A stretch of 51,706 bases of DNA, from IMG/VR virus record IMGVR_UViG_3300030620_000008, positions 1-51,706 of that record; one strand, 5' to 3'. The position numbers and the translations under genes are program-made. This document shows, in pieces, positions 24,956 through 45,848 of this stretch (position 1 is its first letter; every line of letters begins with the position of its first letter). The DNA is from a virus (lineage: Duplodnaviria; Caudoviricetes). The notes under the pieces were generated by a model. The model was given only the letters and a program-made list of their open reading frames with translations, searched no databases and was not told where the DNA came from.

Positions 24956-25035
24956 TGAAAAAGCATCCATACTTTGAAGATGTAGTAGATCATATATTAG
25001 ACGGTCGCAGTTGGGCTCATGTAAGGATACACTAA
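24955..25035 (+). CDS. 26-aa mini-ORF coupling two large genes
   Basis: TGATG overlap upstream and TAATG overlap downstream; MKKHPYFEDVVDHILDGRSWAHVRIH. Confidence 0.55.
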   Translation: MKKHPYFEDVVDHILDGRSWAHVRIH

Positions 25036-28000
25036 TGGCTCTTTTTACGGATAATATGGTAGAACTTGCTCCAAGCGATCCAAATCAATTTACAGGTCCG
25101 CAAATAAGTACATCTAATGAGGAATTTAAAAATAGAGAAACACGTACAGCTGAACATATCCTAATGTTTCCGCCTGCTGCGGCCGCAGGTGCTGTTCAGA
25201 CATTTGGTGAAAGTCTTTATTTATTCAATTCTAATTCTGTTGAGAAATTCTTAAATACTTATATGCAACCACTTGGAAGTTATTATTCTAGGAATAAATC
25301 TCCTGCTCAGACTGTAGGAGATTTAACCGGATTATTTATTCCTGCTATCGGCGCATCAAAAATTCTTAGAACTGTCCAAGGCCTTGATAAGATTTCAGAA
25401 TTAACGCAGTCTAGCAGATTAGCTAAAACAATTATTGGCCGCTCAGGTGAGGCTGATGAAGTTTTAGGTCTATTACGTGCCAGGGATAGATATTTATCTT
25501 CTAGAGGGGCCTTTGATGTATTGGATCAGGATATTACTCGCAAACAGTTGGCGCGCAGAGCTAGAACTGCTGGTGCTGGCGAAGTCATTAGAGATACAAT
25601 TGCAGGAGAATTAGCTATTCTTGGTACTATGCATTCTTCAGACACTTTATATCCCGAAGATTTTACAGCGATGGATCATCTAGCTTTGAATGCTTTATTT
25701 CCAGGGGTATTTGCTGCTGCTAGAGTTTCACAAATTAATAAACTTATTAGAAATTCTGCCCAAAGCGTAGCTCGTGAAAGTGTGCTTGCAAGAAATCCGG
25801 CTGATCTTCCATTAGATCAGATTATTAGCCAGCCTGGTAATCGTGATTTAGGTTTAACTGTTTACGCAGAAGCAAGAAAAGTAGCTGCTAGAGAAAGAGA
25901 TCAAGCTGCGTCGACAGACACTGATATTAAATCTAACTTTGACAGAGATGAAAAAGCTTTTTCCGTTAAAATGAAAGAACAGGTTGAATTGCTTGGAAAG
26001 GATACTATTGTAAAGGATTGGACTAAACGAACTGTCCTATCAAAGGAACAAGTACAGACAATTATGGATGCTGAAAATGATTTTCCTACTACTATGCTAG
26101 GTGCGTATTCAGTTCAGAATGTACCTGATAATGTGCAAGGTTTTCTTAATCATGGTAAGAATTTAGCTAAAACGAAACGAATACAAATTGCTAATATACG
26201 TGATCGAGCAGGCGAAAAGGGAAGAGATTTGAGTTTTGAGGAGGCCGAGCAAATTGATAAATTAAGAAAAAAAGAAGAATTATTGATGAGTACTGAAACT
26301 TATATCTTAGCTGCCGACGGCTCAATGCTTCATGCTAAAAATTATAAGAAAATATTCCAAGATGATCCAGAAAAGATTATAACAGTTCCAAGAGTTCCCG
26401 GAAAGGAAAGCCGTAAATACACTGTAAAGCAAATCGGCTTCAGTGAAGAAGGTTTAGTAATTAGTGGTCACGGGGCAAAAGAAGGTGGCCGCGTTAAACA
26501 ATTAAAAGATTTTTCATTGGATGAACATACATCTTTATATGCTTTAGCACAACGCGCTGTTAAGAATTATAAACTAGGCGAATTTAAAATTGCAGTTCCT
26601 AAAGATGCTAACTATGTTCAATTAGATTATATTATGGAATTGCATAATAAATTTGGAAACGCTATAATGAAAGATTTGTCTCTTCCTAAAGAATGGACAG
26701 CCGGCCTTGCTGATGTTGAAATCAATTCATTAGCACAGAAATTCAAAGAATATAAACGACTTCGACAGACTACTAATCAACAGCTTCGTAGCGGTATAAA
26801 ACTTCCTCAGTCAGCTATTATTAATAAAGATGAAATAGCTAGAAGATTAAATCTTCCATTAACACCGTTCGGTGAAATCCATCCTGTTATGGGATTGTTT
26901 GAAAGTATTATGGTCGCTGATGATGATTTCTTAAAAGCGTTTGGTGATACAAGTCATATCCGTAGAGCATTGCAAGAAGAAGCATTTTGGCCACATCAAG
27001 TTCAGTATGCTGATGCAGATAAGTTAGCTTTACGTGGTAAGATGATTAATTGGCCTGAGAATAAGCAGAGCTCTTTAATTCTAAAACGACCTGTTAATCC
27101 GTTAGTAGGTACCGGGCAGACAATTCAAAGAGGTATTGAACAGACTAGATTAATGAAAATGAAAGGTCTTGGCGCTGCTAGTGAATATGAGGCTGATTTG
27201 GTTAAATTAGTTTTTGATGAACTAACAACGGGGACGGCCGCTGGTGCGACAAGAGTTGCACAAGATGTAACTTCTCTAGCCGTCGGCACTACAAGAACAA
27301 GTCAATTAGCTAATCTTCAATTGACAAAAGCAATGATTATGGCGGAGAACCCGTCATTACAGGCTGTGCAAGCGGTTGAAGTTTTAACTGATAAAATATT
27401 TAGAAATCAGGTCGGCAAAATATTTGAACAACATAATCAAACCTTTGCAACACTTCGTGCTGATAAGGGTGCAATGGATGAATTCAATCTTTATACGCAT
27501 ATGCGGCGCCAGGGATGGGATTTAGAAGAGGCATCTATTCACGGTGAAGCATTAAATGTTTTAGGTACAGACGGTAAATTCATGTTTACTTTATCAAACA
27601 CTGCTGAAAATAAAGCACGTTTTGAAAGAACTTTCGGCAGGGAAATGGAAGAGGGTGACTTAGCCCCAAGTATTAGTCCTAACTATGTTCCATTAGCTAT
27701 GAATGAAAAATCCTTTGCCGCAGCTTCTGCTGTTAATCATTTAGATACAATCTATCTAAGTAATACAAACCACCTTCGCCGCCTTGAAGGATTAATGCCT
27801 ATTAGAAGGAAACCCTGGCATGTCCCGCCTAAAAATCTGGCTAAGGAAGAACTATTTTATCTTATTAGACCGGATGGACGTCTTCATTCTGTGGCCCACG
27901 GAAAGACTATTGCAGAAGCGAAGGCTAAAGCTGATGCGGAAACTACAGCAGCTAAAGCGAATGGATTAAATCTTATTACGCAAAGCCAACAAGATATGGC

Positions 28001-30062
28001 TAAATACTTCAGCATTAAAGATGAAGCATTTGGCGCAATGGTTGACTTCACTGATGTACTTAGACAAACAGCCAGGGCTAAAGGTACTTCTGTAGGGTTA
28101 ATAGTTGACACCGGGCCGGAGGTTTTAAATGATATCATCAGAACCCAATCACAACATTTTGAAAGTGTCCTTCGGCGAACACGAGCGATGTTCTTCGAAC
28201 CACAACTCAATTATATGCAACAAATGCTCTCAAGAAGTGCACCTATCTCAGCTGCTAGAAGAGGTGAAAGTCCTTGGCAAATGTATACTGCTAGTATTAT
28301 GGGGAATCCTAGTATTAATCCCAATGATATTGCCGGCCGCGGTTATTTCGCTATTGAAAATATTATGGATAATATGCTTAATGCTGCCTGGGATAGAATG
28401 CGTGAAAGCAAAGGTATTAAAGCTCCTGCAGCGGTTAAAAATCCGGATGCTGCGTATAATAGATTGAAAGAAAGTCTTGGTGATTTTAATCCATTTCAAA
28501 ATGCAGCTGATTATGCTGAACGAACTCTTAATGTTAAACATCCACCGCAGTTAAAGAGATTATTTGCCGGATTAAATTCATTTACTTCATTGGTAACACT
28601 TCGATTAATGGAAGTTAGTCATTCGCTATTAACACTTATGAGCCTCGGCGCGACAATGCCGGGTGTAATAGCCGGGGCTAGAAAACAAATTGGTGAGACA
28701 CAGCAACAACATTCTGCAAGAGTTGGTACATTTTATAGATTGATTGATAAAGATAACGCGATGTTTAGCCCAGCCAGGGCAATGGCAGATAGTTTTCATT
28801 TCATGTTTACTAAAGAAGGTAGAGAGGTTTATAAGCGTGCAAGTGAATTAGGCTTCATGGATCAAACTGTTGCTGAAATTTTCAAGACCATGACTGCACC
28901 GCAACAAGGTTATCATAGTAATTTGATTAAAAACATCGGCAGAATTACTACATTTTTAAGTGATGAAAGTGAACGCCTTGCACGCGGTATTAGTTTTATA
29001 ACTGGTTATAGAATTGCAACTAAAGGGTTGGAGATAAAAAATGAGAAAGCCGCATTTGCGTTTGGACATAGATTTGCTGATGAGGTTATTGGAAATTACC
29101 ATCCTAATAATAGACCAAAAATGTTTCAAGGCGCTGTTGGTATGCCGCTTGGATTGTTTATGACATTTATGCAAAATTACTATCAAAGATTATTTGGATA
29201 TATAGAAAGTAGAGATGCAAGAGCCGCTGTTATACAATTTGCAACACAAGCCTCAGTGTTTGGCGGATCAACAGTTCCTGGGTTTAACCAATTTGCAGAC
29301 TTCTTTGCGAGTAACTATGATGGCTCTACTAATATTGTTGATGGGATGTATAGTAAATTCGGTGACGATGTTACTGATGCATTTTTATACGGGGGAGTTG
29401 CGAACATACCATTCATGTATGGTTTTGGCGATGGCTTTGGTATATATCAACGAGGTGATACTTCTATTCGCTCTATTCCGTCTGTATTCACTTTAGAAAA
29501 TACTCCAATAGTTACTATGTTCCGTGATGGTTTCAATGCGGTAGGAGAGGCTGTAAGTGCGGCGAGAAGTGGTGGATTTACTGATCAGCGTATCGCAGAA
29601 ATCCTTGGCTCGTATTCTACAAATAGGTTTCTTCGTAATATGGCTATGTTTTACGCTGATGTTTCTGTTGATCGTAGAGGGCAGGTTGTTAGTAGAGATA
29701 TTAGAAGCGATTTTGGCGCAATTAGTAGACTTGCCGGATTGAGACCGTTGAGTGAGACTAGTCAGAGTGAAGCTTATTACAGGCTGAGAAGTACTGAATT
29801 TAGTCGCGCCGCGGGAATGGAGCGTTTACGTGACAATGTTAGAAGTCGGGCCCGAGATGGTAGTCTCAATGCTGATACCGTGAATGATGCCGTTGCTGAA
29901 TATGCTAAGTATGGTGGAAGCGTTCAACACTTCGGTAGATTTCTTCGAGATAATATTATCGTAGGGACAGTTGATAGAGAGCAGAAGAAGGTAATTGATT
30001 TGTTGAAATCTAGTAACCGCGCTCAGGATGCGTTAAGGTTGATGGAAGTATTGCCGGAGTAA
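25035..30062 (+). CDS. Large internal virion/ejection protein (T7 gp16-like role)
   Basis: About 1675 aa, last large gene of the structural arm; VIGNYHPNNRPKMFQG..G....LFMTF segment. Confidence 0.7.
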   Translation: MALFTDNMVELAPSDPNQFTGPQISTSNEEFKNRETRTAEHILMFPPAAAAGAVQTFGESLYLFNSNSVEKFLNTYMQPLGSYYSRNKSPAQTVGDLTGLFIPAIGASKILRTVQGLDKISELTQSSRLAKTIIGRSGEADEVLGLLRARDRYLSSRGAFDVLDQDITRKQLARRARTAGAGEVIRDTIAGELAILGTMHSSDTLYPEDFTAMDHLALNALFPGVFAAARVSQINKLIRNSAQSVARESVLARNPADLPLDQIISQPGNRDLGLTVYAEARKVAARERDQAASTDTDIKSNFDRDEKAFSVKMKEQVELLGKDTIVKDWTKRTVLSKEQVQTIMDAENDFPTTMLGAYSVQNVPDNVQGFLNHGKNLAKTKRIQIANIRDRAGEKGRDLSFEEAEQIDKLRKKEELLMSTETYILAADGSMLHAKNYKKIFQDDPEKIITVPRVPGKESRKYTVKQIGFSEEGLVISGHGAKEGGRVKQLKDFSLDEHTSLYALAQRAVKNYKLGEFKIAVPKDANYVQLDYIMELHNKFGNAIMKDLSLPKEWTAGLADVEINSLAQKFKEYKRLRQTTNQQLRSGIKLPQSAIINKDEIARRLNLPLTPFGEIHPVMGLFESIMVADDDFLKAFGDTSHIRRALQEEAFWPHQVQYADADKLALRGKMINWPENKQSSLILKRPVNPLVGTGQTIQRGIEQTRLMKMKGLGAASEYEADLVKLVFDELTTGTAAGATRVAQDVTSLAVGTTRTSQLANLQLTKAMIMAENPSLQAVQAVEVLTDKIFRNQVGKIFEQHNQTFATLRADKGAMDEFNLYTHMRRQGWDLEEASIHGEALNVLGTDGKFMFTLSNTAENKARFERTFGREMEEGDLAPSISPNYVPLAMNEKSFAAASAVNHLDTIYLSNTNHLRRLEGLMPIRRKPWHVPPKNLAKEELFYLIRPDGRLHSVAHGKTIAEAKAKADAETTAAKANGLNLITQSQQDMAKYFSIKDEAFGAMVDFTDVLRQTARAKGTSVGLIVDTGPEVLNDIIRTQSQHFESVLRRTRAMFFEPQLNYMQQMLSRSAPISAARRGESPWQMYTASIMGNPSINPNDIAGRGYFAIENIMDNMLNAAWDRMRESKGIKAPAAVKNPDAAYNRLKESLGDFNPFQNAADYAERTLNVKHPPQLKRLFAGLNSFTSLVTLRLMEVSHSLLTLMSLGATMPGVIAGARKQIGETQQQHSARVGTFYRLIDKDNAMFSPARAMADSFHFMFTKEGREVYKRASELGFMDQTVAEIFKTMTAPQQGYHSNLIKNIGRITTFLSDESERLARGISFITGYRIATKGLEIKNEKAAFAFGHRFADEVIGNYHPNNRPKMFQGAVGMPLGLFMTFMQNYYQRLFGYIESRDARAAVIQFATQASVFGGSTVPGFNQFADFFASNYDGSTNIVDGMYSKFGDDVTDAFLYGGVANIPFMYGFGDGFGIYQRGDTSIRSIPSVFTLENTPIVTMFRDGFNAVGEAVSAARSGGFTDQRIAEILGSYSTNRFLRNMAMFYADVSVDRRGQVVSRDIRSDFGAISRLAGLRPLSETSQSEAYYRLRSTEFSRAAGMERLRDNVRSRARDGSLNADTVNDAVAEYAKYGGSVQHFGRFLRDNIIVGTVDREQKKVIDLLKSSNRAQDALRLMEVLPE

Positions 30063-31315: not shown

Positions 31316-31577
31316 TTGCTTGCCCCGTTTGGCGTCGACGTTCTCTAAGCATTAAACCTAATTCTCTCCAAGTTATTTCTTTTGCGCCATGTTGTATAGC
31401 AAGTTTCTTTTTTGATAAACAAATATCATAGTGATTACGTTGATACCATTTTCTAGCAACACCAATCTTATCTGCCATTTGATGTAATTCTTCTTCAGTA
31501 TCAGCAATCATATGACACATTATCATACGTCTAAAAGGTGCATTCATATCATCTATATAGACTGTCACTTTTTTCAC
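31308..31577 (-). CDS. DUF4031 family protein
   Basis: VYIDD..MCHMIADTEEELHQMADKIG..RKWYQ..HYDI...A.QHGA. Confidence 0.85.
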   Translation of the reverse strand: MKKVTVYIDDMNAPFRRMIMCHMIADTEEELHQMADKIGVARKWYQRNHYDICLSKKKLAIQHGAKEITWRELGLMLRERRRQTGQAND

Positions 31578-32911
31578 TCCACCTTCTTCGCCCGCACATC
31601 TTCTAATCTAGTAATATTATCTGGTTGCTTATTTAAATTCAATTCATTAATAACAGCTTCAATATCAAATAGTTTCCGTCTAAGCATAAACAATTCTCCT
31701 TTTTTAGGATCAGTAATTTTTTCAATACTATTAGATAATACTAATTCTTCTACAGCTTTTAGAAAATCAAAATTACTTTTAACATCTTTCCTTAAAGTCT
31801 TCCAAAGGACGCCAAGTGTAACTGGTTTATCAATGTATTGAAGGAATTCTATTACTTTTTGTTTTGCTGCGCCGGCTGGTGATAGGCCGAATTCTCCTAA
31901 TGCTTCTGGCATGAATTGTTCAGTAGCTGTTAATATAGCATTGGCCTCTATTACATCATCAGCTGTTATAGTATAACTAATTCTCCCGGCCGCCAATAGC
32001 ATTGATAATTTAAGTGCATGAATATGTCTCCTATTACAATAATAAACAAATCTCGGATCATCTATTGTAATATCTTGGTCATATATATCATGTGAGACAC
32101 CCCACGCCTCACGTGTCATTTTCATTTCACCTTCCATTTTGTAAAATAGATGACTATAAACATTTTCAATTTCTTTTGCTAAATAATTATCCGGTTCAGC
32201 CGGCGGATATTTACCTTTTCTTTTTTTACTAGCAAATACAAATACTAATCTGGAAGAAAATCCACTACCTACAGATAATGATGGCAGACATTCATTTAAT
32301 GTAGATGGTTGTGTACCTGCTAATATTGACAATAGAGGTTCCTTAATAATCTTAGTAGCGGCTGAAGTTGAATAATCATAATCTGATCCGTCCCAGCATT
32401 TTATTAAAAATGTAGTTAATTCTCTGGAATTAGTTCCAATTAAACTATCTAATTCACTAGCTACCGCGTATAATACATGTTTATCTTTTGGATGTATATG
32501 CATTTCTATGCTACTCAGATCAACTGGCCTTCCACTAGCAGCGATGCTTACTATGTTTTCTAATTCAATTTCACTTAATGACGCATCTTTTTCTGTTTCT
32601 GATATGAATTTTCTAATCAATCCCTGTCTCTGTCCCGCAGTATCATCTGGCGCAAATCTGATCTTTGTGGCCTTTTTTAGCCTATCAAGCATCCATTTAA
32701 TCGCAGTAGATTTTCTGGCGGCGGGCGGACCAACTAAGATTACATAAGTATTAGGGTATAGTTGTTCAATTCCAAATTGGTGATATACTCTCCTACCTAA
32801 CGCAGCACTTAATCCACTAATACCGCACCATAGATTGAATATAATTTGCGGCTCAGTGTATTCAGTGTATTCGGAATACACTTGTAGAAACGGGTTCTTA
32901 AAGACAATCAT
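31574..32911 (-). CDS. DUF3987/YfjI-type P-loop NTPase (candidate replicative helicase)
   Basis: LYPNTYVILVGPPAARKST (Walker A variant), ASELDSL (Walker B), WDG, GFSSRLVFV; possible C-terminal winged helix. Confidence 0.78.
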   Translation of the reverse strand: MIVFKNPFLQVYSEYTEYTEPQIIFNLWCGISGLSAALGRRVYHQFGIEQLYPNTYVILVGPPAARKSTAIKWMLDRLKKATKIRFAPDDTAGQRQGLIRKFISETEKDASLSEIELENIVSIAASGRPVDLSSIEMHIHPKDKHVLYAVASELDSLIGTNSRELTTFLIKCWDGSDYDYSTSAATKIIKEPLLSILAGTQPSTLNECLPSLSVGSGFSSRLVFVFASKKRKGKYPPAEPDNYLAKEIENVYSHLFYKMEGEMKMTREAWGVSHDIYDQDITIDDPRFVYYCNRRHIHALKLSMLLAAGRISYTITADDVIEANAILTATEQFMPEALGEFGLSPAGAAKQKVIEFLQYIDKPVTLGVLWKTLRKDVKSNFDFLKAVEELVLSNSIEKITDPKKGELFMLRRKLFDIEAVINELNLNKQPDNITRLEDVRAKKVE

Positions 32912-32960: not shown

Positions 32961-33200
32961 TTACGCGACGTCTGCTGCGTCAATAGCAACGATAAGCGCA
33001 TCCAATTCATTGTGAATTGCTGCTGCTGCCGGCGGATCAATTGATTGAAAAATCGGGCCGACACCTGGAGCACTTGGACGGTCTGAAGGATCACCTATCA
33101 GGGCTCTGAACTTATTGATCTCCGCGATAATCTCCACTTGTGCCGCTGCTGTAATAGGCTCCGTTGGAACTGCGTAACCACCGAACGTTGGAACTGCCAT
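32961..33200 (-). CDS. Small Ala/Pro-rich hypothetical protein
   Basis: 79 aa, SD GGAG. Confidence 0.7.
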   Translation of the reverse strand: MAVPTFGGYAVPTEPITAAAQVEIIAEINKFRALIGDPSDRPSAPGVGPIFQSIDPPAAAAIHNELDALIVAIDAADVA

Positions 33201-33206
33201 CTCGTC

Positions 33207-35708
33207 TTACTCCGTTGTTCCTTGGGTTGAACCAATTGAACTAGTTGAACCTGGGTTGTTAAACGTCAGCGGCACCATTTCTTTTTTGTTCCAAACATGC
33301 CCAATCATTGCATCGACGGGCACAACAAATTGTCTACCGTTAGCTTGACATGGAACATGGACAGTGTCAACAACTAATTTTCTAAGGTGCGGTTTAGTTT
33401 TAGGAATTTGAACTAACATACTGTCATGAAGTTGCAATGATAATAATCCACCTTCATCAAAGAAATTTGTTTTATAGTATAGATTATATAATGCTTTGTT
33501 AATGGCCCCGCTTGTACCGGCTTGTCCAATTTGACTTGCAAGTTCCCGTTGTGTTGAATTGTCATTAATTAAATCACCGAAAAATAATCTGGTTTGTCCC
33601 CAACAATCTGTAAATAGTTTGAAGTTTTTATTCGTCTGCTTGATGATTTCTCTAGTTTGATTAAATGTAGTTGGATATTTTTCATGGTACATCTCAATTA
33701 ATTTACCGCAGAATTTAATTAATTGATCCGACTTCCATTTACTCGCATCTTTATAACCTATTTGTTCAGCGGTAGCTATTGCAGCTTCGTGGCCCATTGT
33801 AACGTACAGTGTAAAACCCATCATAAAATAGTGTGCGCCGTACACTATGCGTTTAGTGTTTTGTCTAACACCTTTAGTACTATGAACAACCCATTCTTCA
33901 TCATTTTTATACCCATTGTAAACTTCTTCATATGGCTTACTGAAGAAATACGCTGCATTAATACAATGTGTATCTCTTGGATCATTTAGTAAATTAATTA
34001 ATTCTTCATCACCTGTTTGATAGGCTGTATAATACATATCACTTTGAGAATAATCCACTTCTAAAAATTCATATCCTTCATCAGCTACGCACATAGCTCG
34101 GATTGGTTTAGGAATATTCTGCCCTTGTGTTCCATATCCTAGATTATGTTTTCTGGAAGCCGCACGATTTGTTTTAGTAGCGCTGGAATTAATTCTAAAG
34201 TACCATCTGTTATTTATTAATGTTAAACCTTTCTCATATTTACTTAAATTATTAGCAGCTTCTTTAACATCTATTAATTGATTAATAATAATTTCTAATA
34301 ATGGGTGCTGGAACTTTATGATATTTAGATATTTCTTATCTGTAGTACGCTCCTTTTCCCCTTTTAAAAGTGGTTGTGCTTTTAATACATCATATATAAG
34401 GCTGGCAACTTGTACAGGTGAATTTTGATTAAAATCTGGATCACTGACCATTAGTTTTAAGTCAGCTAATTTAGTCTCTAATTCTTCTTTAAATCCATTT
34501 AAAATTTTACTGCGCCGATCTTGATCAACTAACAAACCTGTCATTGATGCCAGCAAAGCTGGGCGGGTTAATGGAAAATCTCTTATGTAATTTGTTAATC
34601 CGTATGGTTGAATTAAATTGAGCATTGCTATTGTGGCATATGCTGTATAGTATGTATCTAAGCCGTTGTAATTCAAATACCGATTAAAATTCTCCCGCAT
34701 AATTCTATCGTCAGCGGCGAAATCATCTTCATCTTTACTATCGTCTTTCCAGTAGCGATATTTATCTAATAAAGTTGAACAAATAAACGCAAGATTTCTA
34801 GGAGCTTCTGACCACATTGCGTGGAATAAATAATAGAGATCAAGCCAATACTGATCTACTGGAATATTGTAATACAGTAAATAAGTTAAATCATATGGAC
34901 CGTTTTGGTAAATCTTAGGTACAGGCATTTGTAGAAGTTTTTTAATCCAATACCAAACATCACATTCTTCTTCTGGTATCCAATGGCAATTATTTATTTT
35001 AGTCGGATTATAGAATGGAATAACTAATGTTTTATTTGAACCGTCTTTAAATATTGCTGTGAATGACATACATGTAATAAACGGCTTAGGCCAGCGCCGG
35101 GTTTCTATGTCATGACTGATAAAAATAGCTTTTCTTGCAAGCCTGGCAAAGTTAAATATATCAGTTGTCATTAATGCAATCTTAATATTCGGATCTGGAA
35201 TATTCTTAGGCTTTCCTTCCGCCCATCTTTTAGTCTTAGCCAAATCTCTCATGAATATCCATGTATACCATCTAATGCTTTGCTCATCATCATCCTTTGC
35301 AACTCTTGGTTCAATTGCATAGATTAATTTTTGAACCTCATCCATTACAATACATGGAATTTTATTGTAAAAATAAACACTTCCTCGGCATTTAGGTAGT
35401 GAAGTTATCTGCCGTTCATTGAAGAAACCTAAAGTAGCTTCATCATTAATAACAATTGCTTGCGGTCTTATATTACTGATTAATTGTGTTAAATTAGTAA
35501 ATACTTCGTTTCTTGCATTCGGATTAATAACAATAAGAAAATCTTTTTTTCCTCTTTTAATACGTTTCTCAATCATGGTTTTACATGAATAGTGTAGACT
35601 AGTATAATACATATTATTTTCGGTTAGACCGATTATTTCTAGATAAGGTTTGAGACGGAATTGTAGACCTTTAGAAAAGTTAGGCGGACCTAACCATAAT
35701 ATCTTCAT
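33207..35708 (-). CDS. polA: Family A DNA polymerase with 3'-5' exonuclease and degenerate UDG-like N-terminal domain
   Basis: ExoI HDIET, ExoII QNGPYDL, ExoIII YNGLD; QNIP; motif A DYSQSD; motif B RQNTKRIVYGAHY; motif C LHDS. Confidence 0.93.
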   Translation of the reverse strand: MKILWLGPPNFSKGLQFRLKPYLEIIGLTENNMYYTSLHYSCKTMIEKRIKRGKKDFLIVINPNARNEVFTNLTQLISNIRPQAIVINDEATLGFFNERQITSLPKCRGSVYFYNKIPCIVMDEVQKLIYAIEPRVAKDDDEQSIRWYTWIFMRDLAKTKRWAEGKPKNIPDPNIKIALMTTDIFNFARLARKAIFISHDIETRRWPKPFITCMSFTAIFKDGSNKTLVIPFYNPTKINNCHWIPEEECDVWYWIKKLLQMPVPKIYQNGPYDLTYLLYYNIPVDQYWLDLYYLFHAMWSEAPRNLAFICSTLLDKYRYWKDDSKDEDDFAADDRIMRENFNRYLNYNGLDTYYTAYATIAMLNLIQPYGLTNYIRDFPLTRPALLASMTGLLVDQDRRSKILNGFKEELETKLADLKLMVSDPDFNQNSPVQVASLIYDVLKAQPLLKGEKERTTDKKYLNIIKFQHPLLEIIINQLIDVKEAANNLSKYEKGLTLINNRWYFRINSSATKTNRAASRKHNLGYGTQGQNIPKPIRAMCVADEGYEFLEVDYSQSDMYYTAYQTGDEELINLLNDPRDTHCINAAYFFSKPYEEVYNGYKNDEEWVVHSTKGVRQNTKRIVYGAHYFMMGFTLYVTMGHEAAIATAEQIGYKDASKWKSDQLIKFCGKLIEMYHEKYPTTFNQTREIIKQTNKNFKLFTDCWGQTRLFFGDLINDNSTQRELASQIGQAGTSGAINKALYNLYYKTNFFDEGGLLSLQLHDSMLVQIPKTKPHLRKLVVDTVHVPCQANGRQFVVPVDAMIGHVWNKKEMVPLTFNNPGSTSSIGSTQGTTE

Positions 35709-35738
35709 TAGATTAAGTCCGCCATCTTTTGGTTAGTT

Positions 35739-36089
35739 TTACAAACCACCGGGAGCACGGTCGTGGTTCGCTTTACCGCCACCATGAGCCGCGGCGCTAT
35801 TCATACCAAAGCCTTCCGGTTGTGGACTATTGCCGAGTCGACCAACGAAACGATCATCAGGAGTTCCGCGTCGCTGCGATCCACGTTGGTCCGCATAGGC
35901 ACTGCACGAACGGCATCCGGAGTCCTTATTGGGCCTGTCCGACTCCATTGATAGGAAGGCATGGGCCGTACTTACAATCCAGCCATGCTGTGGCCAGATC
36001 CATGATAGTGGCGCAAAAGTAAAGTACGCGGCTGCAAGGCCAAATAGCAACAAGGCCGTTGCGCCAACAATGGTTAAACGTGGTAGCAT
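35739..36089 (-). CDS. Membrane-anchored hypothetical protein
   Basis: N-terminal hydrophobic helix, then a disordered G/R/S-rich tail; SD GAAGGA; start at 36095 or 36089. Confidence 0.55.
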   Translation of the reverse strand: MLPRLTIVGATALLLFGLAAAYFTFAPLSWIWPQHGWIVSTAHAFLSMESDRPNKDSGCRSCSAYADQRGSQRRGTPDDRFVGRLGNSPQPEGFGMNSAAAHGGGKANHDRAPGGL

Positions 36090-36122
36090 GATCATTCTTT
36101 CCTTCAGGTTTGGTTAAGATAG

Positions 36123-36209
36123 TGGTGCGGGAGACGGGATTTGAACCCGTAATCCTTTTTGAGGAGGCGGATTTTAAGTCCGCTGCGTTTACCATTTCGC
36201 CACTCCCGC
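36123..36209 (-). tRNA. trnL-TAA: tRNA-Leu, anticodon UAA
   Basis: Acceptor stem GCGGGAG/CTCCCGC, anticodon arm GCGGA-CTTAAAA-TCCGC, long variable arm, GGTTCAAATCC, encoded CCA. Confidence 0.96.
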
Positions 36210-36221
36210 AACACACCTTGT

Positions 36222-36773
36222 TTAGGCCGCTTGTTCATCCGTCTTTACATCGCTGATCAGCGTACAAGCATCAAGATCGAGCCTTGAGTAATAGACGTTC
36301 GGCTTTTTCCGATCTTGCTGGTGAACGATTGGCCCGCGGAATTGGTGGCCGATGATGCCTTGTTGAATATCAACCACCGTTCCACTTGCCTTGGCATGGA
36401 TGCTCAGTAACAAATCCTTGAACATTCCAAGCCATTGCTGAACCTGCTCTTGCGTAGGTTTTTTACCCTCTTCAACCGGCAAGAATTGCATCTCGCCGTG
36501 TTCTTTACCAAGCAAGTCCTCATGATCAACGTTTTCATCGGCGCATTCGACAACGCCGATACAGGTGAATGTAGTGAAGAAACAAAGCTTCCCACCCATC
36601 ACTCGTTGTTCAGACTTCTTCAGTTCCCAATCATAGAGCCCGATTGGGAACTTGTAGGCTGTCATGCGGAAACGTTCGACCTCGGTAATATCGACATTAC
36701 CAAGGTCCGCCAACGTCATCTGCATGTCTTGATCGCCAACCTTCACGACGATCGAGTGTTCTTGGTCAGTCAT
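36222..36773 (-). CDS. Putative single-stranded DNA-binding protein
   Basis: 183 aa downstream of the AAA_24 ATPase; FPIGLY beta-rich OB-like pattern; acidic. Confidence 0.5.
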   Translation of the reverse strand: MTDQEHSIVVKVGDQDMQMTLADLGNVDITEVERFRMTAYKFPIGLYDWELKKSEQRVMGGKLCFFTTFTCIGVVECADENVDHEDLLGKEHGEMQFLPVEEGKKPTQEQVQQWLGMFKDLLLSIHAKASGTVVDIQQGIIGHQFRGPIVHQQDRKKPNVYYSRLDLDACTLISDVKTDEQAA

Positions 36774-36922: not shown

Positions 36923-37096
36923 TTATTCGTTGTAGGTTGCTAACGTGATTTGATCGTCGTCAACCTCAACAAAGTTGACTTCCTGCTCATCATCAGATGA
37001 TTGCAGGTTTTGCGTAAAGACAACGTCGGTGTCGAGAGTTACCTGGTTTTCTTTAACCAGGTTTAACAGATTAGTAATGAGTTCGAGAACCTTCAC
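36923..37096 (-). CDS. 57-aa acidic protein (not in ORF track)
   Basis: GTG start with GTGA overlap and SD GGAGG; 13 D/E versus 2 K. Confidence 0.7.
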   Translation of the reverse strand: MKVLELITNLLNLVKENQVTLDTDVVFTQNLQSSDDEQEVNFVEVDDDQITLATYNE

Positions 37097-38190
37097 GTTT
37101 TTCCCTCCACGCTGGGTTTGCTGGGTTTACCAAACAAAAGCGTCGGTTTAGGTTGGTTCGATGCTTCTAATTGAATAGGTGTAGGTGGTTTATTAATGAT
37201 TTTCTTTTTTTCCATTGAAGCTTGTAATAAGCCGAATTGTGGATGTGCGTCACCTCTATTATAAAATTTAAATGCTTCTGGTGGTGCACTATTAATAGGT
37301 GTTGAGATAGTCAAATAATCACAAATTTTACTAGGTGATAAATCCTGCCATTTAGTTAAAGCCGGCGGAATTGTTCTAGTACCACCATCTCTTTCATTAC
37401 TTGGTTTACTATCTATGTAAAAATCATTTCCGGCTAATAAGAAATAAAGCATTTCAAAATCAGCTGGCATTTGTATTGCGTGATTAGCGCTTGTTGATTT
37501 AATTTGTGTTTTAATCCATTCTACTTCTTCACGCATTTTACCCGTTGTGGGATTAAGTGTTTGTTTTCTTTTTTCATACCGATCTTCATGTGCTATGATT
37601 ATTAAATGACACGGTAATGATTGTAATTGTTTATAAGTCCATGTTGCGAAATGTCTGGTCCAACCAAATTCTGGCCGCTTTTCATTATCCGGTGTTACAT
37701 CGCTGAAGTCATATTTAGTTTCCAATGCATACTTCCAAGTCAAGCCCCAACAGAATGAAGTCCAACTATCTAATATTAGTATGTCATTGCGAGTAGTTTT
37801 ACTAATATCAATTTCAATATATGGCTGGTCTTTTGTAAGACTGTTAACTGTCGGAACAATTGTTTTATTATTTTCATTCCAGAAAAATCTGCCAGATTGG
37901 TTGTTTGGATAATCATCTTGTTTAAGCATTCTGGTAAAGAATTGTGGCGCTACCGGCATGTCAGTTTTGTCTGATAGGTCTATTACAAAAATTCTATCTC
38001 TTGCGGATTTAGAAATTTGCTTAGCAATATTATAGCCGCCTTCATCAATACATAGATGTATTATATTGAAACCAATTTCAGCAAATTTAAGAGACCACCA
38101 AGTTTTTTTAGTTTTTGGTTTGCCGTAGATTAAGAGATTAATTTTTAGTTGGTGGTTATTGATCATGTCATTGGCGGTTGGCATATTCAA
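37093..38190 (-). CDS. AAA_24/Sak4-like ATPase
   Basis: LLIYGKPKTKKT, LILDSWT, HLIIIAHE. Confidence 0.75.
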   Translation of the reverse strand: MNMPTANDMINNHQLKINLLIYGKPKTKKTWWSLKFAEIGFNIIHLCIDEGGYNIAKQISKSARDRIFVIDLSDKTDMPVAPQFFTRMLKQDDYPNNQSGRFFWNENNKTIVPTVNSLTKDQPYIEIDISKTTRNDILILDSWTSFCWGLTWKYALETKYDFSDVTPDNEKRPEFGWTRHFATWTYKQLQSLPCHLIIIAHEDRYEKRKQTLNPTTGKMREEVEWIKTQIKSTSANHAIQMPADFEMLYFLLAGNDFYIDSKPSNERDGGTRTIPPALTKWQDLSPSKICDYLTISTPINSAPPEAFKFYNRGDAHPQFGLLQASMEKKKIINKPPTPIQLEASNQPKPTLLFGKPSKPSVEGKT

Positions 38191-38585
38191 TTACTCCTAA
38201 TCATAGGTTTTCTGTCCCACCTATACTTCTCTTCATTCGGTAGCGTCGGTTCATTATCAACAATCATTTGATAATCTATATTATCCCAATAATTAACCAT
38301 TTCTTCCGGTTCAACCCCATACATTTTAGCGATTGATTTGAATAATTGGTGATAATTATAAACCGGATCGGTTTCACCTTCCAATACAGGGTAGTTTTTC
38401 TCTTTAATCCAATTCTCATGGGCTAATTGCGCATAGAAATATAGAGCGTGACAAGCTGGATGATCATCTAGGAAGCCGTTTGGCTTTATTAGATTAGTAA
38501 ATCTTTTAGGAGTAAACTTTACAGTAAATTCTTTTTGGCCTTTTATAACATTCATTGGTTGCATAGTAATCTTATCTCTAGGCAT
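38187..38585 (-). CDS. Hypothetical protein
   Basis: 132 aa, overlaps both neighbours. Confidence 0.75.
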   Translation of the reverse strand: MPRDKITMQPMNVIKGQKEFTVKFTPKRFTNLIKPNGFLDDHPACHALYFYAQLAHENWIKEKNYPVLEGETDPVYNYHQLFKSIAKMYGVEPEEMVNYWDNIDYQMIVDNEPTLPNEEKYRWDRKPMIRSN

Positions 38586-39089: not shown

Positions 39090-40091
39090 TTATGCAACCT
39101 CACTCATCTTTTCAAATTCTAACTCAGCCTTAATCCAAGGCTCCGGCCGTTCCCAAATTTTTTCACTAGAGATGTTTTCTTTCATTTGATCTATTGCTTG
39201 TTTAACTAATTGTTTATTATGAACATCATGACAATACTTAAAAAATCTGCAAATATTTCCATAACTATCAACACATCTACTTCCTCTTTTAGGGAACCAT
39301 CCCATTTGATAATATGCTTTAATATCATTTAGATCAGAATAAAAAGTTCTCAACCAGTCTTGAATATCTATTTCAGATTTTGTAATCTGATAAGGTTTAA
39401 CGGATGCCTTTAATATATCTATGTAAACTGAGATATAAATAACAGTTAATGATTTGATTGGCCTATTTTGAATATGTTCTAATACTACTGCGTAAGGGAT
39501 GCATTGATCATCATTGGCATAAACATAAAACATGTCAGCCGGTTTATTTCTACGATGTGTCTTTACATCTATTACTATGTAGGTTTGATCAAGTAATGAA
39601 TAAACTATTCCATCTATAAATCCTACATAGTAGACTGGGATATCTTGAATATCACTCAAGCTAAAGTTAGATATTTTGATTTCAAACGGTACTTCTAAGG
39701 CCGGTCTTGTTAATCCGTCAACGCATTTAATTTCGGTTAATTCATATGGAGTTAAATCTTTCGAACTAGTCATTGCAACTAATGCAGATATACCAGCTTC
39801 AAGACTTCTATTATTAATTGGGTCAGGAACTTGATTAATCGGATAATGCTGTGCATAAGCCCAAATGGCTTCTTCTAAGTTTTTATTCTTGAGCCAAGTT
39901 TGATAACCGATATGCAATGCCTGCCCAATAACAGCAGCGTCACCATCGTAATCATCTTTTATGCGAGGCCATTCAAAAAATTTGGCAAATTCTAATTTCT
40001 TTTCACATGTATTATATGTGCCGCGACTTGAGTGGCTTAGGTCTAAGCGTTTTAAGTTTGGGTAGAAAGAATATAGCATTACAGGTGCCAA
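39090..40091 (-). CDS. PD-(D/E)xK exonuclease, Cas4/RecB-like
   Basis: LSHSS..TYNTC, GQALH, GFIDG..VIDVKT, and C-terminal C..C..C; start is TTG at 40091 or ATG at 40079. Confidence 0.82.
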   Translation of the reverse strand: MAPVMLYSFYPNLKRLDLSHSSRGTYNTCEKKLEFAKFFEWPRIKDDYDGDAAVIGQALHIGYQTWLKNKNLEEAIWAYAQHYPINQVPDPINNRSLEAGISALVAMTSSKDLTPYELTEIKCVDGLTRPALEVPFEIKISNFSLSDIQDIPVYYVGFIDGIVYSLLDQTYIVIDVKTHRRNKPADMFYVYANDDQCIPYAVVLEHIQNRPIKSLTVIYISVYIDILKASVKPYQITKSEIDIQDWLRTFYSDLNDIKAYYQMGWFPKRGSRCVDSYGNICRFFKYCHDVHNKQLVKQAIDQMKENISSEKIWERPEPWIKAELEFEKMSEVA

Positions 40092-40235: not shown

Positions 40236-40703
40236 TCATTGTATTCCCAACCCATCAAGGATGCTTGAAACATCAGCCACATCACTAGCTTTCTTCCTAG
40301 TCTTGCTTGCCGTACTCTCAGCTCTTTTAACTTGACTGCCGTAGCATTGTTGTAAACCTTTTACCATTATTCCAATATCTTGTGGTTGAAGTATTTCTTT
40401 TAAAACAGGATAACTTTGTAAAATTCCTAACACATATCTAACATCTTTAGAAACTAATTCTTTATCACTAAAATTTGCGACAATTGATGCAAGTGAAGTC
40501 TTAATATTACCCTTTAAAATCTCTTCATCGGTCTCTTCTTGAATTTGATCTTTTTTGCTTGAAATTGCTTGGATTTCAGTGGTTTGTAATTGTTCTGCAA
40601 TTTGTTCATTTGTTAATTGTTTAACTGCATTGCTAGCTGGTGTGCTGCCACGTTTAGATGCGGCAAGAGCCTCTTGAAGAAGTTTAACGGCGTTACTTGT
40701 CAT
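40236..40703 (-). CDS. Hypothetical protein
   Basis: 155 aa, helical, SD AAGGA. Confidence 0.75.
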   Translation of the reverse strand: MTSNAVKLLQEALAASKRGSTPASNAVKQLTNEQIAEQLQTTEIQAISSKKDQIQEETDEEILKGNIKTSLASIVANFSDKELVSKDVRYVLGILQSYPVLKEILQPQDIGIMVKGLQQCYGSQVKRAESTASKTRKKASDVADVSSILDGLGIQ

Positions 40704-42104: not shown

Positions 42105-42502
42105 GGAAAATTTCTGTAATTTTTGAGATTTTTAATTAAATCATTTAGTATTCTATTTATTTCTTTTAAATCATTTAGTATTCTGTTCATTTCTTCAGGT
42201 GATTTAGTTTTAACTGTTTTAGTATAACTATAAGTAAAATTTTTATTTGCTTCATTACTTATGTCTTTTAGTATTTTAGTAAAATCTTCCGTTGATAGTT
42301 CTCCGGCTAATTCACCTAATAAGGATGATGCTGTATTTATGAGTATTTTTATAATACACAGGATACATATATCATTTTGTTTTGCGTCTTCTAATAAATG
42401 AACTAATTCTGTTATAAATCCTGGATTATTTTTTATGCATTCTGTTGGTGACATGAAAACCGTAAGTCTGTCTGGCTTAGGTGTTTGATTGGTCATAGTC
42501 AT
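42101..42502 (-). CDS. Hypothetical protein with a 10-aa duplication
   Basis: 133 aa; EMNRILNDLK-EINRILNDLI. Confidence 0.7.
   Translation of the reverse strand: MTMTNQTPKPDRLTVFMSPTECIKNNPGFITELVHLLEDAKQNDICILCIIKILINTASSLLGELAGELSTEDFTKILKDISNEANKNFTYSYTKTVKTKSPEEMNRILNDLKEINRILNDLIKNLKNYRNFP
42136..42195. repeat. 30-bp tandem duplication
   Basis: Two units, identical at 28 of 30 positions. Confidence 0.9.
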
Positions 42503-43193
42503 CTCCTAAAAGGGTTGAGATTATGGTTTCGGCTTCATTCTTTATTTCTTCTATTATTAATTCTTTATCTTCATCTCCCTCGTCGCCCCAAGGTAATCCA
42601 TACCGCTCTGCACAGATTGGTCCATAGCCAGCTTCAACACTTCGATGATCAGTTAATTCTTTAGAACAGAAGCAGCAGTTTCCTGTTTTAATTCCATAGA
42701 TTTTAAGACTTTCATTCCCACCTGTTATTAAATCGGTTGTTAATGATCTAACAGCTTCTACCACATTTTGTATAATTATTTGATTTTCTAACGCTTCTAT
42801 TATAATTTTTTGCTCTGGAATAATTCTTGCAGCTTTGAATATTTCTAAATTATCATAATAACAAGCAGCTCCAATAAAATTCTTATATTTATTATAATGA
42901 AGTCTTATTCTAATATTATTAAAATATATTTGAAGCTTTGGCCATTTTAAATGTATTGATCCTCTTTTAAAGAAATCAAATAATACACTAGCATCTCTTA
43001 AATCAAATAATGGCACAGCCAATGATTGAGAATTAGTCTTTGCAAGTAGACTATGAACATATGGCCATTGTTTTTCAGATAACCAATTTTTTGCTCTATA
43101 TTGACCAATTAAACTGTTGGCAAAACTTTGATCTCTACCTGAAAGCTTTGAAAGCTTTTCTTCCAGACTTTCAATTAATCGCTGTTCTTGCAT
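42477..43193 (-). CDS. DUF6011 zinc-ribbon domain protein
   Basis: GNCCFCSKELTDHRSVEAGYGPICAERYG. Confidence 0.8.
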   Translation of the reverse strand: MQEQRLIESLEEKLSKLSGRDQSFANSLIGQYRAKNWLSEKQWPYVHSLLAKTNSQSLAVPLFDLRDASVLFDFFKRGSIHLKWPKLQIYFNNIRIRLHYNKYKNFIGAACYYDNLEIFKAARIIPEQKIIIEALENQIIIQNVVEAVRSLTTDLITGGNESLKIYGIKTGNCCFCSKELTDHRSVEAGYGPICAERYGLPWGDEGDEDKELIIEEIKNEAETIISTLLGDDYDQSNT

Positions 43194-43967: not shown

Positions 43968-45848
43968 TTATTCCCTTTCATTCCGTTCATCTTGCGAAGC
44001 ATCCGGCCACTTAGGAACTAGATGATCTTCCTTATCTTGCAAATCCATAAAACTCTTTGCCTTTTGTTCCAATGACAATCCTTTAATCCTCTGCCTACTT
44101 AACGCATTTAATAAGCCTCTTTTATTAGATAATAAAATAACCTTATCAATAGCTCTAGTAACTGCAGTATACAACCATTCTCTATAGAGCATTCTATCGT
44201 TTTCTGTATGGCATACGATAACAACTAATGGAAACTCCCCGCCTTGACACTTATGACAAGTTGCCGCATACGCATGCATTAGTTGATTAAATGAGCCGAC
44301 TGTTCTAAATTCAACATCTTGATCTTCAAATCTTACTGTTACAATATGACTTGCTTGTCTTTGTGCTTTTTCTGCAAAATCACTATTTTTACCCTCTTCT
44401 AAATCTTTATTTCTTTTATCAAACGCGTTGTTTACATCTTGTGCAAATTCTGCGCTATTAAGTGTTGCCATTAGTTCATTAAAATCGATTGCGCTTCTCG
44501 GATCGAATTTAATCTTATCTCTCACTGATGAGTATAATTCATTAGGTTTGATTTTAATAACCCTACCAATCATTCCATTAGTTAATCCCCTTTCATTATC
44601 ATTCTGCGTTAGCATTAGTTTATCATTAACCGCTAATGCAATATGCTTGAATGCCGCGCTGATAATAATTCTTTCTCCTTTGGCTGGATTGAAGTATGAG
44701 ACAAAATGATCATTAAGATGCTCTTGCCCGAGAATACCTACATTTTGTGGAACAATTAAAGCATCCCTGAATGGATCAAATGATCCTTGTTTATGTAATG
44801 TTTTAATAATTTTTAAAACTTTAGTATATGCTTCATGCTCGTCATCAGGTAAATTAACCATTACAAAATTGTTAGGATGCGTGTCTGGAATATAACCCTG
44901 TAATATATTATGTGCGCCGGCGATGATTGGATTATCTAATGCTTGGCGATGGATTTTTGTTAATTCAAAGGTGGGCCATTGCTGCATTGCATAGCCTAAA
45001 ACTGATTTACCATTTACTGGCGGGAGCTGGTTAATGTCTCCGAGTTGGTAGACTTTTGTTTTTGGAAGTGTCGCCTTTACTAAATTATTCCAAAGCCAAA
45101 CCTGAACATTGCCAGCTTCATCAATTATAATAATATCGGCTGTTAAAGGATTAGTTTCTGTTCTATGCGGCACAAATAATCTTTTAGTTTCTCCGCTATT
45201 AATATCTACAATACCAACAGGTTTGTATTCTAAATGCGCATGAATTGTTCTACAGAATTTTCTTAGATGCATTGGAACATGCAAAGCCAAATTCCTTGAA
45301 GCTCTACCAGTAAATGAACATAGAATAATCTCTGGCTCACGATTGTATTTTTGAATAAATTCATCTGTTATTTTTGCAAGAAATCTATTAGTAATAGTAG
45401 TCTTACCAGTTCCAGCCGCGCCAATGATACATGCGTATTGATGATCTAGTAATCCTTTAAGCGCAAGCTCTTGACTTTCATCGAAAATTAAGGTTTTTTC
45501 CTTTTCAATGTAATCAGTTGGTTTAGAAGTTTCATCAATTTTTTCAATGGCACTGCCATCTATTAAAACTTCCGCATCTTTAGCAACTAATTCTTTTCGC
45601 GCGGCAAGTGTCATAGGAATGTTAATTTTAACATTCCTTCTATTCATGATTGATGCGATTTGCTTTTCTAATGCTGTTTTATTCTTATCAATTGTACCGG
45701 CCGGAGCTTTTGAAGGCGAAGCCTTGGCTTTATTCAATAAGGCTAGAAAATGTAATTCTTGTTCTGTTTTCTTTTTATTAATCTCACTTGAATTTTCAGT
45801 CGGCCTGGTAGAAGAGGTTGGTTTTAACTGAAGATTGAACATTTTCAT
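43968..45848 (-). CDS. RecD/Dda-like superfamily 1B DNA helicase
   Basis: GAAGTGKTT, IIDEAG, GDINQLPPV, LTKIHRQ, AYAATCHKCQG, LYTAVTRA; start placed at the ATGA overlap at 45848 (frame is open from 46001). Confidence 0.92.
   Translation of the reverse strand: MKMFNLQLKPTSSTRPTENSSEINKKKTEQELHFLALLNKAKASPSKAPAGTIDKNKTALEKQIASIMNRRNVKINIPMTLAARKELVAKDAEVLIDGSAIEKIDETSKPTDYIEKEKTLIFDESQELALKGLLDHQYACIIGAAGTGKTTITNRFLAKITDEFIQKYNREPEIILCSFTGRASRNLALHVPMHLRKFCRTIHAHLEYKPVGIVDINSGETKRLFVPHRTETNPLTADIIIIDEAGNVQVWLWNNLVKATLPKTKVYQLGDINQLPPVNGKSVLGYAMQQWPTFELTKIHRQALDNPIIAGAHNILQGYIPDTHPNNFVMVNLPDDEHEAYTKVLKIIKTLHKQGSFDPFRDALIVPQNVGILGQEHLNDHFVSYFNPAKGERIIISAAFKHIALAVNDKLMLTQNDNERGLTNGMIGRVIKIKPNELYSSVRDKIKFDPRSAIDFNELMATLNSAEFAQDVNNAFDKRNKDLEEGKNSDFAEKAQRQASHIVTVRFEDQDVEFRTVGSFNQLMHAYAATCHKCQGGEFPLVVIVCHTENDRMLYREWLYTAVTRAIDKVILLSNKRGLLNALSRQRIKGLSLEQKAKSFMDLQDKEDHLVPKWPDASQDERNERE

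Follow-up and report, generated by a model that had tools for sequence, protein, structure and literature searches.

The virus record IMGVR_UViG_3300030620_000008 of IMG/VR, analysed over its whole length of 51,706 bases (hereafter the window) and rated complete by the collection's own estimate, codes for a family A DNA polymerase of 833 amino acids (positions 33207–35708, minus strand) in which the glutamate of the steric gate is replaced by aspartate. Alignments and phylogeny indicate that this aspartate is fixed in, and defines, a large, almost wholly uncultured sister clade of the 119X/PaP2-type polymerases. The open reading frame (ORF) probably codes for the normal replicative, proofreading DNA polymerase of the phage, with a re-packed sugar pocket, priming being supplied otherwise. 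A previous sequence-only reading had connected the altered gate to the lack of a visible primase, proposing that the enzyme may incorporate ribonucleotides, prime itself or accept modified nucleotides. Both premises of this connection hold but the connection itself fails, as set out below.

Domain organization and active-site residues of the polymerase

The polymerase ORF features three domains. The match to DNA_pol_A (PF00476) scores 92.8 bits, against a cut-off of 34.3, and spans residues 404–807. The ORF also matches phrog_17 (E = 1.4e-45). Taq and Klenow polymerases are the top solved relatives found by phmmer. The polymerase domain (approximately residues 386–812; 33273–34553, minus strand) was bounded from the Pfam match and the alignment to Taq. 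Residue equivalences were taken from the phmmer (HMMER) alignment to the Taq large fragment and from a MAFFT alignment with Escherichia coli PolA (NC_000913.3), which give the same assignment for motif A.

Motif A reads DYSQSD (34038–34055, minus strand) in the translation and equals E. coli D705 to E710 and Taq D610 to E615. Its first residue, D552, is the equivalent of D705; the codon at 34038–34040 (minus strand) specifies Asp557 in place of the steric-gate Glu (E710) and is preceded by Ser556, which replaces the isoleucine I709. Motif B, RQNTKRIVYGAHYF (33825–33866, minus strand), carries R615, K619, V622, Y623, Y627 and F628 at the positions of E. coli R754, K758, N761, F762, Y766 and G767, respectively, according to translation and alignment. 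The same sources give motif C as HDS (33420–33428, minus strand), where H761 and D762 equal H881 and D882 and Ser763 replaces E883. The catalytic set of E. coli (D705, D882, R754, K758 and Y766) is kept as D552, D762, R615, K619 and Y627. Two family A hallmarks deviate. The gate Glu, which is the conserved position A2 in the 19-cluster survey as presented by Czernecki 2023, is Asp557, and the third carboxylate of motif C is Ser763. The latter carboxylate is not family-defining, since N4 gp39 has alanine at the position of E883. All three motifs, as well as the intact exonuclease described next, agree exactly with what had been read from the sequence before. The accompanying statement that both sugar-gate positions are altered stands for Asp557 and was overstated for position 762, because the tyrosine found there (Tyr623) is the normal state of T7-type polymerases.

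The 3'-5' exonuclease domain (approximately residues 195–385; 34554–35126, minus strand) was located by alignment to E. coli. Its Exo I, II and III residues are intact, with D200, E202, N269, D273, Y347 and D351 equal to E. coli D355, E357, N420, D424, Y497 and D501. The amino terminus (approximately residues 1–165; 35214–35708, minus strand) is a domain similar to family-4 uracil-DNA glycosylases (UDG). A profile of 36 such amino termini found 1ui0, the family-4 UDG of Thermus thermophilus, in a hmmsearch of the PDB (E = 3.9e-7). The AlphaFold2 model of residues 1–195 (predicted local distance difference test, pLDDT, of 91) retrieved the same structure with Foldseek (E = 6.5e-7), together with TM0511 and UdgX (probability 1.0). 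The profile alignment begins only at chain residue 61 of 1ui0, no His is found at the HP(S/A) position and the first strand, judged by eye, reads ILWLGPPNF in place of the UDG motif; on these residues the domain is probably catalytically dead. The window enzyme is a UDG-PolA in the sense in which Czernecki 2023 describes this class. Note that a weak Foldseek match to the UDG-like model (rank 31, E = 0.03) is PDB 9qhs, a 1122-residue entry released in 2026 under the title “phiLo family-A DNA polymerase with modified template”. It was not retrieved when the complete polymerase sequence served as query, and it is possibly the first UDG-PolA with a solved structure.

The aspartate gate among related polymerases

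A HMMER search of 1.84 billion cluster representatives yielded 7972 matches, and a separate protein homologue search with the polymerase gave only 5 relatives. The counts given for representatives concern the best 150 of these 7972, each standing for a 50%-identity cluster. In their MAFFT alignment the gate column holds Asp in 112 representatives and Glu in 36, while 2 do not cover it. Such a frequency among the nearest relatives means that the aspartate of the window is neither a chance change nor a sequencing error. In the Asp rows only 22 columns reach a conservation of 98% or more; Asp557 is among them, along with the catalytic and exonuclease residues, and the alignment indicates that the gate Asp is under constraint. 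The exonuclease residues are kept in 143–147 of the 150 representatives, which fits a proofreading DNA polymerase.

Several positions around the gate distinguish the Asp rows from the Glu rows. An aromatic residue occupies gate+3 in 110 of the 112 Asp rows against 1 of 39 Glu rows, where nearly all residues are Cys, Gly, Thr or Asp. Gate+2 is Arg in 30 of the 39 Glu rows and Tyr, Trp, Val or others in the Asp rows, and motif 6 reads GQ.GT in the latter versus PQ.LS in the former. The residue preceding the gate is shared by the two groups: it is Ser (94), Ala (15), Cys (2) or Gly (1) in the Asp rows, and the Glu-gate sister clade likewise has Ser or Ala there. Position 762 is polar in the Asp clade, with 89 His, 21 Tyr and a single Phe, and it is His in all 36 Glu-gate representatives. 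Histidine at this position (F762, B3) amounts to 125 of the 148 representatives that cover the site and is also present in PaP2, Tiera, EBPR podovirus 3, Microcystis phage Mel-JY34 and others. Phe is found at the Y766 position in 27 of the 112 Asp rows.

The phylogeny was computed with FastTree on 153 rows, after dropping rows that lack motif A, B or C and adding Mel-JY34, the Desulfofustis phage, Aeromonas P5 and Gordonia Fribs8; E. coli and Fribs8 served as outgroup. In this quick tree, in which two long-branch joins were flagged, the gate state changes 3 times, compared with 37.7 changes on average when the labels are shuffled. The main Asp clade (108 rows, SH-like support 98) is sister to a group of 41 rows that includes PaP2 and Tiera and comprises 40 Glu and 1 Asp. 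This topology indicates that most Asp-gate polymerases share one origin. The window sits in the Asp subclade with Tyr at position 762. Among 80 related loci fetched from IMG/VR, 78 have a polymerase ORF, 45 of them with Asp and 33 with Glu at the gate.

Gate state in isolated phages and relation to known replication systems

A tblastn search of 50,697 phage records matched 366, and the gate residue was read in the named few. In 14 of the matched records the alignment spans 80% or more of the query; they come from 119X/PaP2-type phages and Tiera (26–28% identity). Glutamate is found at the gate of PaP2, Tiera, EBPR podovirus 3, Aeromonas P5 and the Desulfofustis phage, and also in the Gordonia Emalynvirus phages, whose motif is canonical. 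Aspartate is present in Mel-JY34 and in Vibrio phage VS-ABTNL-3, both of which were deposited as ordinary DNA genomes. The polymerase of the Vibrio phage is split: an ORF of 184 codons lies between PVS_29, which carries the UDG/exonuclease part, and PVS_27, which carries the polymerase part. Split polymerases are also found in the loci L049 and L050, in which a separate ORF of approximately 217–220 residues lies ahead of a polymerase ORF of 714–722 residues.

Among named phages, the window polymerase is most similar to those of the 119X/PaP2-type podophages (Fredfastierviridae), Polaromonas phage Tiera and EBPR podovirus 3 (26–30% identity over 76–89% of the protein); its nearest relatives are of 119X type and not of T7 type. 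PaP2, Tiera and EBPR podovirus 3 share with the window the order Dda-like helicase, exonuclease, ATPase, polymerase, DUF3987 protein and a convergent gene of approximately 1700–1850 codons, a synteny found as well in Mel-JY34 and the Desulfofustis phage. Their polymerases have Ser or Ala before the gate, the HDS motif C and an amino-terminal extension like the window enzyme, and His at 762 like most members of the Asp clade. They differ in having a gate Glu and Arg at gate+2 where the window clade has Asp and an aromatic gate+3.

Phage N4 has the same set of replication functions in a different gene order: gp37 (helicase), gp39 (UDG-PolA), gp42 (exonuclease), gp43 (dns), gp44 (Sak4-like) and gp45 (single-stranded-DNA-binding protein, SSB). 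Gp39 shares with the window polymerase an amino-terminal family-4 UDG-like domain. The catalytic residues of this domain are described as unconserved in N4 and seem to be lost in the window. Gp39 differs in having a gate Glu, Phe at 762 and HDA as motif C. The N4-like PolA cluster (#17), as characterized by Czernecki 2023, carries Phe at B3 (F762), where the window has Tyr623. The Tyr at B3 of the T7-like cluster (#5) is present in the window, whose genome has no Toprim/DnaG-type match. T7 gp5 resembles the window enzyme in Tyr762, in being a replicative phage PolA and in its active exonuclease (that of the window is predicted from residues). It is distinguished by a gate Glu, an HDE motif C, the described TOPRIM primase-helicase partner and the lack of a UDG-like domain.

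A replication module in which no primase is detected

The structural genes of the window lie on the plus strand up to approximately 30 kb, and the replication arm on the minus strand from approximately 30.2 to 48.3 kb. Related loci have the gene order SF1B (superfamily 1B) helicase, PD-(D/E)XK exonuclease, AAA_24 ATPase, small conserved protein, polymerase, DUF3987 protein and a convergent gene of approximately 1700 codons. The DUF3987 protein of the window (445 residues; 31574–32911, minus strand) was identified with Pfam (E = 6e-16, 59 bits against a cut-off of 27). Its Walker A motif, GPPAARKST, occupies residues 61–69, with G61 and K67 invariant in 46 homologues, and this position leaves no room for an amino-terminal primase domain. 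A DUF3987 profile shows weak matches to the AAA+ and lid regions of MCM4/7 (E = 6e-4). By its sequence features the protein is a candidate replicative helicase of superfamily 6 (SF6, MCM-related) without a primase domain. Kazlauskas 2016 describes DUF3987 proteins as MCM-related replicative helicases that are usually fused to a primase or adjoin one, and N4 dns as a helicase with a carboxyl-terminal archaeo-eukaryotic primase (AEP) domain. Fused DUF3987 forms were absent among the longer proteins searched, which is weak evidence. In N4 gp43 the DUF3987 region stays under the gathering score (24.2 bits against 27) and is accompanied by PriCT_1; the window and 40 relatives gave no match to PriCT_1 or to the AEP domain assigned in the account of Kazlauskas 2016.

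Pfam assigned 19 families to the 63 ORFs of the window, none of them a primase, and no ORF gave an NCBIfam primase signal. Six-frame searches of the window with Prim-Pol, Toprim_2, Toprim_3, DNAG_N and PriCT_1 had no match, while control genomes were matched (14, 7 and 10 of 14 genomes for Toprim_2, Toprim_3 and DNAG_N, respectively). The same five families had no match in any of 41 records (29 Asp-gate, including the window, and 12 Glu-gate), of which 38 are at least 90% complete. The carboxyl-terminal part of N4 dns used as query also matched none of the 41, in a search that had no positive control. “DNA primase” labels occur solely as PHROG names on the DUF3987 protein, among the 25 of 32 matched PHROG families listed. 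No primase is found among the 25 listed of the 34 Pfam families that are present in the non-core neighbours of Asp-gate polymerases. These results bear out the earlier remark that no DnaG/TOPRIM or AEP primase is recognizable in the 51.7-kb genome. The co-occurrence it suggested between the unusual motif A and primase absence did not materialize: the five primase families are missing in 12 of 12 Glu-gate genomes exactly as in 29 of 29 Asp-gate genomes, so that primase absence is not linked to the Asp gate. The absence is real at this sensitivity and extends over the whole supergroup instead of being peculiar to the Asp-gate enzymes.

It is possible, although somewhat unlikely, that the phage codes for a primase that is unrecognizable among the ORFs without assigned family (ORFans) of the replication arm, an explanation that is compatible with an ordinary polymerase. 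Many ORFs of this arm have no family, and the usual association of DUF3987 helicases with primases speaks for such a protein. Candidates are a 383-residue protein (46319–47470), a 238-residue protein with a DUF6011 zinc ribbon (42477–43193) and small conserved proteins at 40236–40703 and 38187–38585; moreover, the modules of 18 and 16 Asp-gate loci contain the conserved proteins c11 and c15, respectively, which have no assigned function. The database searches above speak against this explanation, as does the failure of the 383-residue protein to match anything in Pfam, PHROGs, NCBIfam or the Atlas. Also unfavourable are the genes directly upstream of the helicase, which are the polymerase, a 79-residue ORFan or a deoxynucleoside monophosphate (dNMP) kinase, and the negative search with the N4 dns carboxyl terminus, for which a positive control was lacking. 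The conserved neighbour of the polymerase was itself considered as a primase and rejected. This protein of 183 residues (36222–36773, minus strand) was modelled with AlphaFold2 on 39 homologues (pLDDT 89.5) and matched PrgE in Foldseek (E = 8e-4), followed by bacterial SSBs including SsbA, identifying it as an OB-fold SSB. Its position is occupied in 48 of 79 loci, Asp-gate and Glu-gate alike.

A protein of approximately 350 residues neighbours the helicase in Glu-gate relatives. It was examined as a homologue of the 383-residue protein and found unrelated (hhalign probability 0.1), and it has no PDB relative. The 238-residue protein (minus strand) carries the Cys-rich DUF6011 motif at its carboxyl terminus (Pfam E = 2e-11) and matches several PHROGs of unknown function; two DUF6011-type proteins occur among the Asp-gate loci.

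Proposed re-packing of the sugar pocket

The arrangement described above is best accommodated by a polymerase made of an inactive family-4-UDG-like domain, a 3'-5' exonuclease and a polymerase domain, which would copy DNA from deoxyribonucleoside triphosphates (dNTPs) with proofreading. The gate Asp appears as part of a package that also comprises a preceding Ser or Ala, an aromatic side chain one helical turn further on and, at 762, a polar residue (His or Tyr). Its carboxylate would retain the role of Glu, while the aromatic residue one turn below would fill the room left by the shorter side chain. The sugar pocket would be re-packed but working, with an exclusion of ribonucleoside triphosphates (rNTPs) that is possibly somewhat weaker. 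Published descriptions of Taq mutants state that activity is kept with many different residues at I614 but only with conservative replacements of E615, and in Pol theta the gate Glu is described as acting through the Tyr at the 762 position. Priming would not be a task of the polymerase. The phage would use an N4-type module (SF1B helicase, PD-(D/E)XK exonuclease, Sak4-like ATPase, OB-fold SSB, UDG-PolA and DUF3987/MCM-like helicase) minus the DUF3987-linked primase domain of N4, in Glu-gate and Asp-gate members alike. Primers would most likely come from recombination intermediates, presumably made by the exonuclease, the Sak4-like ATPase, the SSB and the helicases, or else from transcripts, the host primase or an unrecognized phage protein.

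Several points weigh against this account. Reportedly, the E615D change in Taq raises rNTP use. Hydrophilic substitutions at Taq I614 are described as raising rNTP use as well, and by analogy the natural Ser-Asp pair could loosen the gate. Retained dNTP selectivity across the clade is an assumption made from sequence. The co-variation around the gate depends on approximately 3 evolutionary events, and the aromatic residue at gate+3 is missing from the two or three Asp lineages that stand apart from the main clade (P0132, Mel-JY34 and the Vibrio phage). The Asp is strictly invariant although the sequences are only approximately 35% identical, which speaks for a specific role of this residue and against a neutral exchange. 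Several ORFans of the window have no family assignment.

A polymerase clade whose sugar selectivity is naturally relaxed, so that ribonucleotides or 2'-modified nucleotides are inserted, for example when dNTPs are scarce, is an unlikely alternative to the re-packed pocket. The gate Glu is described as packing against the 2' position, and the Taq variants that accept rNTPs are mutated at the gate and at the residue beside it; both residues differ in the window (Ser-Asp), and the Asp is invariant in the 112 representatives. The Phe that occupies the Y766 position in part of the Asp rows adds to this, since the residue there helps to tell dNTP from NTP according to Czernecki 2023. The comparison with laboratory enzymes is close in that the I614K, I614N:L616I and E615G sets of Taq and I709F of Klenow change the same two adjacent motif A positions; better rNTP use is described for I614K and I614N:L616I, and a weaker rNTP exclusion in the window enzyme is consistent with this mutational work by analogy. 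Those variants were, however, selected in the laboratory for rNTP or 2'-modified substrates, whereas the window carries an ancient change of natural origin that is accompanied by others. Relaxed selectivity is further disfavoured by the Ser or Ala that precedes the gate in the Glu-gate sister clade too and is thus not Asp-specific, by the nearly constant aromatic gate+3, which looks like compensation for the shorter side chain, by the intact proofreading residues and by the frequent presence of a dNMP kinase, ThyX and ligase, an ordinary precursor set, in Asp-gate genomes. A stronger version, in which the more than 100 50%-identity clusters form a natural “open-gate” lineage whose Ser/Ala-Asp pair permits insertion, extension or starting with rNTPs, is quite improbable; if true, it would explain replication by a module that lost the N4-type primase domain.

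It is very improbable that the polymerase primes its own synthesis through the altered pocket, alone or with a small partner, in the manner of the CCPol-MP system of SCCmec, and this part of the earlier proposal finds no support. The precedent is a family A polymerase, CCPol, that is described as making primers de novo with the small protein MP and as being encoded beside a helicase (Cch2) of a type usually fused to primases. The order polymerase, 79-residue ORF, helicase in the window looks similar, and no primase was found. Yet CCPol is described as keeping the E710 and F762 equivalents and priming with dNTPs, so that an altered gate is not the cause of priming, and as requiring MP and lacking most of the exonuclease domain, which is intact in the window enzyme. 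The 79-residue ORFan (32961–33200, minus strand), located between polymerase and helicase, has no Pfam or PHROG match and no BLASTP counterpart in the 80 related loci, so that a conserved MP-like partner is not present in the window. The Glu-gate relatives are, furthermore, equally without primases.

Nucleotide metabolism

Among the 39 Asp-gate loci that hold both genes, 21 have a dNMP kinase between polymerase and helicase (for example L017:4009–4629 and L014:12538–13149), against 0 of 25 Glu-gate loci; the window has the 79-residue ORFan at this place. A protein of the Rv2179c-like 3'-5' exoribonuclease family follows the helicase in 16 Asp-gate and 17 Glu-gate loci. The Pfam census of Asp-gate neighbours (117 non-core proteins, 34 families, 25 of them listed) also includes ThyX, MazG-type enzymes and DNA ligases. 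The dNMP kinase, ThyX, MazG and ligase are ordinary DNA-precursor equipment.

No nucleotide-modification enzyme is present among the 19 Pfam families of the window, which leaves the earlier suggestion of modified nucleotides unsupported. That the altered pocket accepts base- or sugar-modified nucleotides and the phage genome is modified is most unlikely, even though the pocket is unusual and UDG-PolA fusions are described in modified-thymine phages (SPO1 and relatives), for the gate residue is described as touching the sugar and not the base, and the catalytic motifs of the UDG-like domain are apparently gone, as they are in N4, a phage not known, in the accounts consulted, to modify its DNA.

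Other genes and features of the window

The remaining genes of the module lie upstream of the SSB gene on the minus strand. The ATPase of the AAA_24 (Sak4/RecA-like) type (37093–38190) was recognized by Pfam below the gathering score (E = 7e-5). It has a counterpart in 63 related loci by clustering and in 37 by direct BLASTP, and N4 gp44, found at the equivalent place, is annotated as Sak4-like. The PD-(D/E)XK exonuclease (39090–40091; PDDEXK_1, E = 3.5e-8; phrog_1218, exonuclease) is found in 53 of the 80 loci. The SF1B Dda/RecD2-like helicase (43968–46001) has the Pfam domains AAA_19, AAA_30 and UvrD_C_2 and matches phrog_325 (Dda-like) and, below the cut-off, NCBIfam RecD2 (E = 3e-76).

A tRNA-Leu (UAA) gene (36123–36209, minus strand; ARAGORN, and Rfam tRNA with 67.5 bits) is positioned directly upstream of the polymerase gene. 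Between it and the polymerase start there is an island rich in guanine and cytosine (GC) at 35700–36100 (51–59% GC against approximately 28–37% in the flanks). The island is open in several frames, the longest ORF (35739–36095, minus strand, 118 residues) starting with a hydrophobic helix; it matches no Rfam family and its RNA fold z-score is -0.09.

The gene convergent to the replication arm codes for a protein of 1683 residues (25011–30062, plus strand) that is kept in 50 loci at the place of the N4 virion RNA polymerase. It was considered as an RNA polymerase that could supply primers; this candidate was dropped, as a 25-sequence profile gave no PDB match and the alignment has no invariant Asp. 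At the other end of the genome, a DHH/DHHA1 phosphoesterase of NrnA/RecJ type (822–1775, plus strand) matches phrog_4771 (E = 2.7e-73) and, below the cut-off, NCBIfam NrnA (E = 3e-7). A homologue follows the DUF3987 helicase directly in two Glu-gate relatives (L057 and L083). Within the structural arm, the genes at 16626–20742 have approximately 50–52% GC versus 34–43% elsewhere on the arm; they may form a block for tail or receptor-binding functions that was gained by horizontal transfer. The Pfam matches of the genome include Laminin_G_3, Mtd_N and related families.

Novelty and significance

No description of an Asp gate or of His762 in natural family A polymerases was found in the text searched, figures and supplements aside; the motif logos of Czernecki 2023 may be relevant to this point. 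In the text of Nasko 2018 the terms “histidine”, “His762” and “710” occur 0 times, and the discussion of position 762 in this virioplankton study and in the PolA classification of Czernecki 2023 concerns, in the portions consulted, only Phe, Tyr and Leu. If the enzyme excludes rNTPs normally, the Asp gate would be a lineage marker of modest interest. The lineage with the invariant Asp, together with the isolated phages, is a ready-made experiment on how far sugar selection is set by the gate side chain and how far by its surroundings, and it may also yield polymerases that accept unusual substrates. The N4-type module without a detectable primase makes the question of how chains are started a concrete one in the cultured phages PaP2, 119X, Tiera and Mel-JY34. 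The finding is a well-defined enzymological peculiarity of a phage replicase that is ordinary in other respects, combined with a priming puzzle that concerns the whole phage group.

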